The notes under the pieces: model-generated | What the model was told of the DNA's origin: nothing | The model's database searches: none | Seen by the model: the letters and a program-made list of their open reading frames with translations, nothing else | Assembly: GCA_951406725.2 (NCBI GenBank) | Contig: OX597835.1 | Location: 45,632,001-45,696,000 of the forward strand | Direction of reading: 5' to 3' | DNA length: 64,000 nucleotides | Source: Octopus vulgaris | Lineage: Eukaryota | Program-made: the position numbers and the translations under genes | Shown here: positions 3,140 through 56,467 of the stretch, piece after piece | How positions within the stretch are numbered: the stretch's first letter is position 1 | Layout of the letters: each line of letters starts with the position of its first letter

Positions 3140-3468
3140 TTATAATAAAGGGTTATTTGCAACAAGTAGCTTAAACCACATACCGAAAATATTAGAAATA
3201 GCAGTCAATGGGCTACTATTACTAATTACTACAAAAATAAGTCTCCACAAACAACAGTATTTGTAACACAAAGACAACGAAATCACACAGTCTACTTGGT
3301 GATTTCGTTGTCTTCCTTCATTTTACCATATACGGGTTACAAATACTGATGCTTGTGGAGACTTATTTTTGTAGTAATTAGTAATAGTAGTCCATTTGAC
3401 TGTTATTTCCAATATTTTCGGTATGTGATTTAAGCAACTTGTTGCAAATAACCCTTTATTATAATTAT
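3136..3468. repeat. Long fold-back inverted repeat (~132 bp arms) with a nested inner hairpin
   Basis: 3136-3267 is the near-perfect reverse complement of 3336-3468. Inner arms aagacaacgaaatcac (3271-3286) / gtgatttcgttgtctt (3299-3314). Flanked by (TA)n. Confidence 0.9.
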
Positions 3469-22202: not shown

Positions 22203-23061
22203 CAATTTAGTTTGGTTCAAATATGTTTGTCACATATTTCAACTGCTAAAGCCAAATATATTGCAGTTACCATGGAGATAGAGAAAAATCTCTCTTAAAT
22301 TAAAAAAAGATGGGAAAACACCTAATTCGTTCGGTGTCGCCCTCTATCAGGATTATCAGGTATCGATATTTCGAGTGTATTGACTCTTCCCTATGAGATG
22401 TACCAAACTGAGCCAACTCTGAACGAAGTGAATAAACCTTATAGCCTTATATATAATTCAGGCGACACATTGACTGATCTGCCAGATCGCAAGATCGAGA
22501 GAAAAATGTCGGAATAATGGTGCTGCCCACACAGAAGAAATATTAGCAAGTCTGGAATAATAATAAGAAAATCCAAATTCATAAAATTCTGTAATTTGGA
22601 CAACGTGGCATGGCGTGAAAGCTTAGCTACGACATCTAAGAAAATTATCAAACTGCTTTAATAAGCACCCGTAATATTGCACTTAAATGTCTTCGGCAAT
22701 AGTGTAGGTATAAGAAGTGGCAATTATGATGATTTCATGGTAATTTGAATGAAATTGCAGTTTAAACGACGTAGAATATACAAAATGCGTTTCGTTTTAT
22801 CGCAGCACATTAATCACAATTAAATATATTCCACGGTAGCAAAACAACAACAACAACAATATCAAAAAGTGTGTTTTCGAAAATCCGGCAAATCTAAAAT
22901 TCTATGAAATTCATGAACCTGCCTACCATAATTTCCTGTCTAATTCTTTCACTTAGGTTTATAGAAAACGAAATTCATAAATTTCAATGCAAAGAAGCTA
23001 GTGGAAAATTCAAAATATAAATATCTTATATATATATATATATATACAAACACACACACAC

Positions 23062-31212: not shown

Positions 31213-31826
31213 TTATAGCTTTCAAATTTTGGTACAAGCTCAGTAATTTCAGGTGAGCGAGGAATACTCGATTATATCGGTACAATCGAGTATGCTTACA
31301 TCACCAGCCCCAAAAGGATGAGAGGCTAATGTCACCTCGGTGGAATTTGAACTCAAAATGTGAACGCAGACGTAATGTTGCGAAGTATTTTGTACGACGT
31401 GCTAATATTTCTTATTTCTTTACTGCTCACAAGGGGCTAAACACAGAGGGGACAAACAAGGACAGACAAACAGATTAAGTCGATTATATCGACCACAGTG
31501 TGTAACTCGTACTTAATTTATCGACCCTGAAAAGATGAAAAGCAAAGTCGACCCCAGCGGAATTTGAACTCAGAACGTAACGGCAGACGAAATACCTATT
31601 TCTTTATTACCCACAAGGGGCTAAACACAGAGGGGACAAACAAGGACAGACATAGGTATTAAGTCGATTACATCGACCCCAGTGCGTAACTGGTACTTAA
31701 TTTATCGACCCCGAAAGGATGAAAGGCAAAGTCAACCTCGGCGGAATTTGAACTCACAACGTAACGCAGACGAAATACCGCTAAGCATTTCGCCCGGCGT
31801 GCTAACGTTTCTGCCAGCTAACCGCC
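31213..31826 (-). mobile_element. SINE family B, three tandem/nested core units (~184 bp period)
   Basis: tatttctttattacccacaaggggctaaacacagaggggacaaacaaggacagac at ~31597 and ~31413; head gaaataccgctaagcatttcgcccggcgtgctaacg. Confidence 0.9.
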
Positions 31827-38416: not shown

Positions 38417-38510
38417 TACTGTCACGTTCGTGTTAGATTGACAGTATACAACCATTCTATCGCCCCACCACCGTACATGTCTCTACGAGAGATTTAGAAA
38501 TTTAGTATTT

Positions 38511-38567
<57 letters not shown>

Positions 38568-41810: not shown

Positions 41811-42492
41811 ATAGAAATATTAAAATAACTAAGTCTCTCTAAAAGAGAACAGCGGCAGCGTTCCCGGAAAATGATAGTTATCGCCATACTAATATGGCAT
41901 TCTTATAAAAATAAGAAAAAAGCTGTCCGCTTATTAGCTCCATGAGGCCATCGCCTTAAGTTAGCTATTTGATACACAAACTGTATCCATATAACCTTCG
42001 AACAAGGGAGGTCAGTCGCTCCACACTACTTGACCGGCAGCTACAGACGCGTTTCATGGAGCTAATAAGCGGACAGCTTTTTTCTTATTTTTATAAGAAT
42101 GCCATATTAGTATGGCGATAACTATCATTTTCCGGGAACGCTGCCGCTGTTCTCTTTTAGAGAGACTTAGTTATTTTAATATTTCTATTATTGAAAACAA
42201 GTGGATGTATTCCACCGAAACTAGGTAAATAAAACCATCGAACAGAGATTGTCGGAAGCGACACCTACTGGCTGGCTACGCTGCATTGAAAAGGGGCAAT
42301 ACCCCGAAACGCGTCTGTAGCTGCCGGTCAAGTAGTGTGGAGCGACTGACCTCCCTTGTTCGAAGGTTATATGGATACAGTTTGTGTATCAAATAGCTAA
42401 CTTAAGGCGATGGCCTCATGGAGCTAATAAGCGGACAGCTTTTTTCTTATTTTTATAAGAATGCCATATTAGTATGGCGATAACTATCATTT
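41811..42492 (+). mobile_element. Retrozyme/Penelope-like element: inverted partial copy (41811-42055, minus) joined to ~1.2 direct units of a 362-bp repeat
   Basis: 41811-42055 is the reverse complement of unit sequence from GAAACGCGTC to aatatttctat; atggagctaataagc recurs at 42056 and 42418; (TA)n on both flanks. Confidence 0.85.
42280..42321 (+). ncRNA. Minimal type I hammerhead ribozyme, U3-A8 core variant
   Basis: gctgca-TTGAAAA-GGGG-caata-CCCC-GAAAC-GC-GTC-tgtagc; predicted cleavage after C42315; stem III palindrome ACGCGT. Confidence 0.8.
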
Positions 42493-42606: not shown

Positions 42607-42680
42607 TAAAGTATAATAGCCATCTCAATATGGCTAACCACAAAGGTGGTCAGCCATATTGAGATGGCTATTATACTTTA
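42607..42680. repeat. Near-perfect hairpin (35-bp arms) in a (TA)n tract
   Basis: taaagtataatagccatctcaatatggctaaccac-aaag-gtggtcagccatattgagatggctattatacttta. Confidence 0.92.
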
Positions 42681-42728
42681 CGTTGTCGAGCGGTTACTGT
42701 TTACATCTCGTTCAGAGATTTATTATTG

Positions 42729-42769
<41 letters not shown>

Positions 42770-54497: not shown

Positions 54498-55207
54498 TGT
54501 ATACATATAGCGGCGTACGTACACTTTTGCTCACCTTGTATGTTTCTAAATTTTGTAAGACAGTTTTTCGTTTTCTTTTTAGTCCCTGTCATACTTTCTT
54601 CTTTCCTTCCCTTTTTTCTCACTCCCCCTTTCTCTCACTTCTTAGCTTTTTCTTTCATTAATTCCTACCTTTCCTCCTCGTTTAGATCCCTTGTACATTC
54701 CTCTGCGCCCCTTTGATTTCCACTCCTTCTCGTTCTTCGCTAGTCCTTCAATGTTTCTGCTTTCTGCTCGTCTCCTTTCCCTCCACGTGACCGGCGGTGT
54801 TCTGCCACGCATGATCTTCCTTTCCTGTCGCTTGACTTTCATCTCCTGTTCATCTCCTTTTCCTGCCTCAAGGATTTCACTTTAAACACGCCAGCTCAAC
54901 CTCATTCGTCCCTGTTAGTCGAAAGACGCTGGTTGTCATTTCCTTGTTGTTTGTATTAGGAATTGTGTGACTTGTTCTCCGATTTTTGGCTCCTCTTCTT
55001 ACTCATTCGCTTGCTCTCTCCCCCAAAATTTAATACTCTTAGCTTTATGTATATATGTACTTATATGTACATATACGCATAAATACATATATGTATACAA
55101 TTTTAATATTTCTATTATTGAAAACAAGTGGATATATTCCACCGAAACTAGGTAAATAAAACCTTCGAACAGAGACGATCAGTGGCGACACCTGCTGGGT
55201 CGACTAC

Positions 55208-55250
55208 GCTACATTGACAAAGGGCAACTACTCTGAAACGCGTCTGTAGC
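55208..55250 (+). ncRNA. Minimal type I hammerhead ribozyme, U3-A8 variant (unit 1)
   Basis: gctaca-TTGACAA-AGGG-caacta-CTCT-GAAAC-GC-GTC-tgtagc; predicted cleavage after C55244. Confidence 0.8.
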
Positions 55251-55571
55251 TGTCTGACTAGCAGTGTGAAGCGGCTGACCTCCCTTGTTCGAAGGTTATA
55301 ATGGACACAGTTTGTGTGTCAAATAGCTATCTTAAGGCGATGGCATCATGGAGCTAATCAGCGACAGCTTTTAGTCTTATATCTATAAGACTGCCATATT
55401 AATATGGCGATAACAATTAATTTCCAGGAACGCTGCCGTAATCTCTTTTAGAGAGACTTAGTAATTTTAATATTTCTATTATTGAAAACAAGTGGATGTA
55501 TTCCACCGAAACTAGGTAAATAAAACCATCGAACAGAGACGGTCAGTGGCGTCACCTGCTGGGTCGACTAC

Positions 55572-55614
55572 GCCACATTGACAAAGGGCAAATACCCTGA
55601 AACGCGTCTGTAGC
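55572..55614 (+). ncRNA. Minimal type I hammerhead ribozyme, U3-A8 variant (unit 2)
   Basis: gccaca-TTGACAA-AGGG-caaata-CCCT-GAAAC-GC-GTC-tgtagc; predicted cleavage after C55608. Confidence 0.78.
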
Positions 55615-56131
55615 TGTCTGACTAGTAGTGTGAAGCGGCTGACCTCCCTTGTTCGAAGGTTATAATGGACACAGTTTGTGTGTCAAATAGCTATCTTAAG
55701 GCGATGGCCTCATGGAGCTAATCAGCGACAGCTTTTAGTCTTATATCTATAAGACTGCCATATTAATATGGCGATAACAATTAATTTCCAGTAACGCTGC
55801 CGTAATCTCTTTTAGAGAGATTTAGTAATTTTAATATTTTATTCTCTCTCTATATATATATATTTATATGTACGCATGTACATATATATAGTTTTATATT
55901 ATGATAGCTACAAGGACATCACAAAATAATGTCTAGCGTTCATTCCCTCACTTTCCCCATCATTCTTGATCACAGCTGAACAACGAACGAGAACGTGAAA
56001 CTCTGAGTTGCAGTAATTTCGTGTTATTTTTTATAATTTTAATCATAAAATAAAAGAATATTACTCTACCTCCTGAATTCGATCGCAACTTTTCTCCATC
56101 ATGTTTCGCCTTTATGTACTTACTCGTGTAT

Positions 56132-56244: not shown

Positions 56245-56436
56245 AATGGCTGTGTGGTAACGGGAGTGGCTGTGTGATAACAGGAGTGACTCTGTGGTAA
56301 GAAGCTTGCTTCTCAAGCCCATGGCTTCGGCTTCAGCCCCTGTGCATAGCACCTTGAGCAAGTTTTACAATAGCTTAGGGCCGATTCAAAGTCTTGCGAT
56401 TGGATTTGCTAGACGGAAACTGAAAGACGCCCGTCG

Positions 56437-56467
<31 letters not shown>

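Follow-up and report, generated by a model that had tools for sequence, protein, structure and literature searches.

The repeat unit at 41811–42492 of the window, that is, of the whole 64,000-nucleotide stretch of Octopus vulgaris DNA analysed here, is very probably a non-autonomous, non-LTR retrozyme-type element which is moved in trans by a Penelope-like (Neptune-type) protein carrying reverse transcriptase (RT) and GIY-YIG domains. The family is real, young and of a known kind, and the genomic evidence for Penelope-type mobilisation in trans is clear. Beyond the preliminary description of this DNA, the unit is found to have two fixed 3′ ends, a candidate driver and a site-specific LINE which lies within it.

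The unit is non-coding, 362–364 nt long and repeated head-to-tail with one hammerhead in each copy; within the genome (2.8 Gb, 227 contigs) its tandem insertions reach up to about 3 kb and are dispersed over many contigs. Two insertions are carried by the window, one of subfamily A (41811–42492, 362-nt unit) and one of subfamily B (55099–55843, 364-nt unit), which are 87.8% identical. With monomer positions numbered from the predicted hammerhead cut, the 42-kb insertion consists of an inverted arm on the reverse strand (41811–42055), comprising the last 10 nt of the hammerhead and monomer 1–235, and a direct arm on the forward strand (42054–42492), comprising monomer 101–362 and then 1–177. 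The arms are identical across their common part and meet in a head-to-head joint with a 2-nt overlap; the inverted arm stops at the distal fixed end, E2, and the direct arm at the proximal fixed end, E1, each adjoining (TA)n. No open frame of at least 120 aa was found over this copy. Its type I hammerhead, as read from the sequence, occupies 42280–42321 on the forward strand: a 6-bp stem I (42280–42285/42316–42321), the core UUGAAAA (42286–42292) with U3–A8, a 4-bp stem II (42293–42305) and then GAAAC-GC-GUC (42306–42315), with the predicted cut at 42315|42316. This last part includes the palindrome ACGCGU, and helix III is reduced to one base pair and a 2-nt loop. The 55-kb insertion, also on the forward strand, comprises 2.0 head-to-tail units, is 5′-truncated without inversion and ends at E2; its hammerheads lie on the forward strand at 55208–55250 (core UUGACAA at 55214, predicted cut 55244|55245) and 55572–55614 (core at 55578, predicted cut 55608|55609).

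Remains of related families are also present in the window. A short, inverted-plus-direct 3′-end fragment of the distant family E (42611–42730; 82–91% to family E loci L326–L329) lies in the (TA)n stretch shared with the 42-kb insertion, and a 3′-end fragment of the distant family F (38417–38519, forward strand; 96% to L313) is flanked by (TA)n runs on both sides. Repeat and Rfam scans across the entire window were dominated by microsatellites. Several other repeats were observed: positions 22211–22297 are a piece of an older, different U3–A8 hammerhead repeat, seen also at L155, L164–L169 and L172, whose pieces are tandem or inverted and run out into (TA)n and which has no blastn match to the unit; 3159–3256 belong to a third older U3–A8 hammerhead repeat (also at L161, L178 and L216); a different dispersed repeat, present as a tandem pair of 184-nt copies, occupies 31413–31779; and at about 56250–56440 (L031:2692-2847) there is a SINE-like repeat of ~160 nt with a (TA)n end, present in many fetched loci.

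The canonical C3–G8 core by which retrozymes are usually recognised is not that of families A–D. A pattern for the U3–A8 core gave 1,632 genomic matches and none in the control, as against 34 and 15 for the C3 pattern; six of the 34 were judged by eye to be members of the family, and these were all C3–A8, never C3–G8. U3–A8 was present in 206 of 210 cores read from families A–D, a sample partly selected by pattern, and in all 30 subfamily D cores collected without using the core pattern. As had been described previously, core position 7 varies (TTGAAAA at 42286 as compared with TTGACAA at 55214 and 55578) whilst U3 and A8 are fixed, and it is A, C, C and U in subfamilies A, B, C and D, respectively. 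In families E and F, in which the motif order is the same as in A–D (the family E unit is 354 nt), pair 3–8 is C–G, U–G or U–A and C3–G8 does occur; across 12 copies of A–F there were five U–A, four C–G, two U–G and one A–G. Because the distant families show this series, and given the 30/30 in subfamily D, the U3–A8 core is a family trait rather than decay, as first proposed. Rfam hammerhead models gave no match to 42130–42490 at E ≤ 10, and one family E copy matched HH9 weakly (26.5 bits, cut-off 52). The core is atypical but already in print, the sole report found being that on Schistosoma Penelope-like elements (PMC4209133).

The monomer is highly self-paired, as retrozyme monomers are, in both its linear (sense z = −10.2 for A, −7.2 for B) and circular (−7.4 and −6.6) forms, the predicted fold being a long rod that prolongs stem I and ends in a multibranched top. 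The four paired differences between the 42-kb and 55-kb copies listed in the preliminary description were all recovered: stem II GGGG/CCCC (42293–42296/42302–42305) vs AGGG/CCCT, ctact/agtag vs ctgct/agcag, GATACA/TGTATC vs GACACA/TGTGTC, and ttcttat/ataagaa vs gtcttat/ataagac; G–U pairs occur within stem II of the first 55-kb unit (AGGG/CTCT) and in the second, where CTGCT lies opposite AGTAG. Against 109 pairs predicted solely from subfamily A, and with the same 45 substitutions placed randomly for comparison, subfamily B shows five two-sided compensations (0.69 ± 0.79 expected; P = 0.0007) and seven broken pairs (19.0 ± 2.7 expected; P = 0.0003). Subfamilies A–D, which are mutually 84–93% alike, derive from the 10 of 21 nhmmer clusters with at least three members, after four had been dropped as alignment artefacts across inversion junctions and two pairs merged. 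Six of their 12 directed comparisons gave a significant two-sided count and the other six did not, and broken pairs were significantly too few in 11; the same five pairs recurred. An alignment of 14 copies gave a covariation score above all 500 shuffles and a number of covarying pairs that was reached in 74 of the 500. Two-sided changes were found there in 6 of 101 pairs and 6 of 15 helices, with none in columns 152–282, the central third of the unit being nearly invariant and hence uninformative by covariation; the statement that compensation extends along the whole RNA was therefore too strong, and stands for the rod base, two hairpins and stem II but not for the central third. At greater distance, hammerhead stems I and II were paired in 117 of 120 cells across 12 copies of A–F, and six representatives of these families gave 52 of 60 Watson–Crick pairs compared with 33.5 when strands were permuted, a level reached by 2 of 720 permutations.

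It could be argued that such stems belong to a DNA satellite in which they are kept by hairpin gene conversion, without any functional RNA. Antisense folds are likewise strong (z = −6.3 for A, −7.1 for B), so that both strands fold far better than shuffles, and private G–U and A–C changes (66 vs 84) carry no strand bias, although these counts are uninformative as a strand test. However, of 454 changes private to a single insertion, 211 break a pair, as compared with 10 of the 37 that at least three insertions have in common (Fisher p = 0.025), and the unpaired share of post-insertion changes in A, B and D (34–40%) is close to the unpaired fraction of about 40%. As private changes are blind to structure and shared ones less so, selection precedes insertion, which argues against DNA hairpin conversion. 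The compensations, moreover, include pairs about 310 nt apart and go with a strand-specific ribozyme core, and the copies lie on many contigs with ends of the retrotransposition type; a satellite is therefore barely credible. The fold scores, the A–B compensation, the private and shared changes and the A–F stems support the earlier view that selection acts on RNA structure, and the template RNA, not the inserted DNA, would be the level at which it does so.

The manner of insertion was analysed in 125 independent insertions uncut by locus ends, taken from loci L001–L260, which had been gathered by top-hit and pattern searches and are not a random sample. Outer 3′ ends lie at E1 (monomer 166–182) or E2 (229–242) in 181 of 198 cases, and 158 of these 181 abut (TA)n; a 3′ end is present on both sides in 73 of the 125. 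Among inverted insertions with both ends classed, 58 of 59 have one E1 and one E2 (p = 2e-16). An inverted, 5′-truncated copy, two fixed 3′ ends and a bias towards (TA)n targets are the features expected of a Penelope insertion; inverted copies, tails and a (TA)n bias are general for Penelope-like elements (PMC8557442), and purified Anolis Penelope protein uses two internal start sites bounding the tail, with both strands cut and extended (PMC11167929). E1 and E2 match these two start sites and tail in vitro, with a spacing of about 60 nt where the published Penelope tail is 30–40. This layout, together with the young candidate family described below, supports the original suggestion of mobilisation in trans by a Penelope-like protein.

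The same anatomy would also fit solo pLTRs, or tandem arrays of pLTRs, from an as yet unfound autonomous Penelope-like element, the more so as vertebrate retrozymes resemble pLTRs (10.64898/2026.07.22.740005) and as the genome searches scored best candidates only. It had been proposed at the outset that attachment to a Penelope RT and GIY-YIG frame would mark the unit as a pLTR, and stand-alone tandem arrays as a retrozyme. None of the 125 insertions has the pLTR geometry, in which the unit follows the endonuclease end of a Penelope ORF; the 5′ flanks of 52 non-inverted insertions have nothing in common except common repeats and an ORF1-only element; the unit has no similarity to 30 RT loci, and the terminal parts of 44 GIY-YIG loci matched it just once, in a distinct copy on the far side of a (TA)n run. 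The hammerhead, in addition, recurs every 362–364 nt in the arrays. Thus the pLTR reading fails and is very unlikely to be revived by such an element: the unit is a stand-alone retrozyme, non-coding and with no ORF attached, whose tandem repeats, each with a type I hammerhead, fall within the 150–450 bp of non-LTR retrozymes. Copies 3–7 kb apart (L091, L092, L214, L216) were considered as pLTR pairs and rejected, as no Penelope ORF lies between them, and two further loci with spaced copies, L093 and L215, carry nested elements instead. One joint that may be counted on the side of a pLTR is at L185:1085-1333, where a mid-RT Penelope-like fragment, 44% identical to the Neptune-type protein, is joined directly and in the same direction to a 5′-truncated subfamily D unit; it reflects either template switching or insertion into a remnant. 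An open frame at L215:159-800 resembles the C-terminal endonuclease part of what, from its motifs, would be another Penelope-like clade.

The form of the template can be approached through private variants at multiply covered positions, of which 32/278 occur in every unit of the insertion and 2 in some units. One locus accounts for seven of the 32, as its haplotype markers, and the 42-kb locus has one all-unit variant, present in 3/3 places. This ratio points to a monomer-to-multimer step such as a circle. In contigs from four sequencing runs guessed to be RNA, 28/28 bins were covered and a joint back by 362 nt was present in 4/4, with loose ends that enter (TA)n; since tandem genomic copies yield an identical joint, these contigs were not counted either way. 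The stretch of the unit is present in 20 sequencing-run rows, none of them recorded as RNA, and five runs with other organism codes (X16–X20) contain 86–89% of its sampled words. A possible, though somewhat unlikely, alternative is that cleavage by the hammerhead is slight or absent, with a linear read-through multimer as the template and the fold kept for protein binding. Minimal Penelope-type hammerheads cut weakly (PMC4209133), eight of nine Xenopus dimers did not cut (10.64898/2026.07.22.740005), and the Anolis ribozyme, which needs protein for its activity, is dispensable for insertion, ribozyme mutants being without effect in vitro (PMC11167929). Helix III, at one base pair and a 2-nt loop, points in the same direction, as does the co-folding of two 53-nt motifs, in which the active dimer was not the minimum-energy form. 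Against this, core and stems are preserved by compensations through six families, and variants in all units, both arms included, outnumber those in some units by 32 to 2.

A search of the genome for GIY-YIG domains gave a young Penelope-like family (L247–L260; L250 = G000:C6:133343000-133349000) with a 4,713-bp unit and, in 14 of 14 fetched copies, a 781-aa open frame with RT and GIY-YIG. Twelve of the 14 are within 0.7% of the majority sequence, and the family is as young as subfamily A, which is about 1% diverged. The GIY-YIG match is preceded by a Zn-finger-like CX4CxxC linker, as expected of Neptune, and on this linker and other motifs we presume the family to be Neptune. Such linkers are common to Neptune and Nematis (PMC8557442). 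The pLTR of the family carries a U3–A8 hammerhead of its own; its ends lie at +70–73 (17 entries) or +108–113 (6 entries), two loci being counted twice, and all enter (TA)n, and locus L257 has one end per strand. Because no blastn similarity was detected between the unit and this element, and because the ends of the latter are 35–40 nt apart rather than about 60, the Neptune-type element is the likely, not the proven, driver and the best candidate. Upstream there is another ORF, about 466 codons long, whose overlap with the RT frame spans a TTTTTTA run, at which the sequence would allow a possible frameshift. Other Penelope-like families are also present. An abundant, decayed Penelope RT family (L124–L153) was seen among 11,909 first-look candidates, of which the best 135 were scored; from its motifs we take it to be Poseidon-like. 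It has C3-core hammerheads downstream of its ORF and, with these cores and no similarity to the unit, was rejected as the source of the latter.

Under the preferred reading, a retrozyme moved by a Penelope-like protein, tandem loci would be transcribed and neighbouring hammerheads would pair via the ACGCGU palindrome and cut, releasing a 362–364 nt monomer which may circularise. The protein would then nick both strands at a (TA)n site and prime internally on the RNA, using E2 for one strand and E1 for the other; copying would proceed beyond unit length, and head-to-head joining of the two cDNAs would create the inverted-plus-direct layout. On top of this cycle, a LINE lineage and an ORF1-only element appear to insert upstream of the hammerhead.

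The LINE was found in L093, where 5.35 kb lie within the unit between duplicated copies of monomer 301–317, a site which is empty in the window (42254–42270, forward strand) and lies 32–38 nt upstream of the hammerhead core. It has an ORF1 with a zinc knuckle and an intact 1,140-aa ORF2 with AP endonuclease, RT and zinc finger, the domain combination of Tx1 elements; the best solved relative of ORF2 is human L1 ORF2p (E = 5e-66). The element is called L1/Tx1-like, with Tx1 rather than L1 as its putative clade; homologue searches yielded no informative names. It ends in AATAAAGATTT and has a target duplication of 16–18 bp. Its 3′ end has 43 matches, and all 19 of those at ≥99% identity are at one site, the sequence-specific insertion with target duplication for which Tx1 elements are known; the LINE–unit junction pattern has 34 matches (control 0). 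LINE-type junctions number 21, in 16 loci, in 12 of which a full-length LINE starts exactly after monomer position 317. The possibility that the link arises solely by hitchhiking was rejected because four of five 5′-truncated copies still have the upstream portion of the unit in front of them (in one case with the duplication complete; the fifth is joined to an inverted arm), because in one array copies are stacked around bare target duplications, and because the flanking unit haplotypes differ among loci; one locus (C14, L301) does fit carriage by Penelope-like machinery. In an array at G000:C2:73041650-73069400 five LINE copies were observed with periods of 5374, 5373, 5735 and 5374, the long period containing one extra 362-nt unit. 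It is held with high confidence that this lineage targets one fixed site in the retrozyme; the position is shown, and the specificity of the endonuclease is inferred from it.

That this LINE, or another non-LTR element, moves the unit itself would be suggested by the physical linkage of a young element with an intact 1,140-aa ORF2. However, there are only 34 junctions against 1,632 cores, and the unit has two internal fixed ends, (TA)n targets and no A-rich tail, whereas the LINE ends in AATAAAGATTT with a 16–18 bp duplication; such a driver is highly improbable.

Relatives of the LINE extend the pattern. Ten older 3′-end relatives (73–97%) lie outside the unit; behind most of them comes a short ATAC-like word, and behind one a U1 gene. 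Among nine full-length relatives at 82–84%, six sit 32–33 nt before a family E hammerhead, two at the 5′ end of a U2 gene and one at neither, and the U1, U2 and family E insertion sites are similar to one another. At L316, L317, L271 and L296, relatives were observed at the extreme 5′ end of U2 or U1 snRNA genes, and one copy has a U1 5′ stretch at its 5′ junction with no U1 gene behind. The ORF1-only element (1.7 kb) has an ORF1 30% identical to that of the LINE and shares with it the end AATAAAGATT; the best 14 of its 47 matches are all at the LINE's site in subfamily D. Of 16 distant relatives fetched, nine lie 33–38 nt before an E or F hammerhead (finder background, 6 matches per 69,000 bases), two at such a duplication and five at none.

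A more far-reaching, three-tier parasitism is put forward tentatively, as a possibility that falls short of even chances: a LINE lineage related to those at U1/U2 would live on the retrozyme, be cut out by its ribozymes and in part be carried by Penelope. The lineage would have moved from U1/U2 5′ ends to a similar-looking site in the retrozyme superfamily and followed the latter through families A, D, E and F. As hammerheads are intact on both sides of the LINE, it might be co-transcribed with the retrozyme and excised by the ribozymes of the host units with a defined 5′ leader, which would explain why 12 of 16 loci have exact 5′ junctions; it might also sometimes be carried along by the Penelope-like protein.

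The question of what drives animal retrozymes has so far rested on co-occurrence and homology, and the young family described here bears the Penelope-specific signature of two start sites. With an intact candidate protein in the same genome, the driver becomes testable in the published in vitro system, for which start sites at monomer 175–178 and 235–238 are predicted, and the rule of one end per strand (58/59) constrains models of Penelope dimer integration. The families also record a C–G, U–G and U–A series at the 3–8 pair of the hammerhead. A LINE at a fixed distance from a ribozyme core, with relatives at U1 and U2, amounts to natural target switching, which for a ribozyme retroelement was not found in print among the matches listed; the retrozyme with the LINE inside it is a parasite of a parasite.

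Among the literature matches listed there was no report of an octopus hammerhead, nor of a LINE which targets a hammerhead repeat, although subscription papers, supplements and Repbase may hold one. The unit resembles the metazoan non-LTR retrozymes (PMC7229834) in its tandem non-coding repeats (150–450 bp; 350–390 bp in mussel), in the single type I hammerhead per unit and self-paired monomer, and in the absence of LTR features. Those retrozymes, however, mostly have canonical hammerheads whose cutting and circles have been demonstrated, compared with a U3–A8 core and minimal helix III read here from sequence; Penelope-like elements are named there merely as a 'strong candidate' driver, and the word 'inverted' does not occur in the main text. 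A later study (10.64898/2026.07.22.740005) likewise concludes that Penelope-like elements move retrozymes. Its grounds are co-occurrence and homology to pLTRs, chiefly in vertebrates, and the term 'tail' is not used in it; here the evidence is the insertion signature, and no homology to the candidate driver was detected.

Partial tandems, an inverted copy, two RT starts and a (TA)n bias are shared with Penelope-like elements (PMC8557442, PMC11167929), for which non-autonomous, multicopy head-to-tail forms have been described in Chlamys. The unit differs from them in having no ORF and ends about 60 rather than 30–40 nt apart, and in the near-strict pairing of one end per strand as counted here (58/59). 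The Cercyon hammerheads of Schistosoma (PMC4209133) show the same core covariation and palindromic helix III, but the motifs there, about 1,300 in number, are heterogeneous, mostly occur singly and have a long helix II, in contrast to the near-identical tandem units, 4-bp stem II and long rod of the octopus family. The nested LINE, finally, has much in common with the Tx1 LINEs (PMC4494074): they too have an AP endonuclease, insert at a fixed position within a multicopy target, form tandem arrays about a duplicated target and have relatives at snRNA genes. Published targets of the clade are transposons, snRNA genes and 'satellites' (PMC4494074, figure legend; PMC8869645), for example Tx1L in Tx1D, Keno in U2 and Tx1-Mar in Mariner-N4 (PMC4494074), whereas the lineage described here inserts into a hammerhead retrozyme and has relatives at the extreme 5′ termini of U1 and U2.
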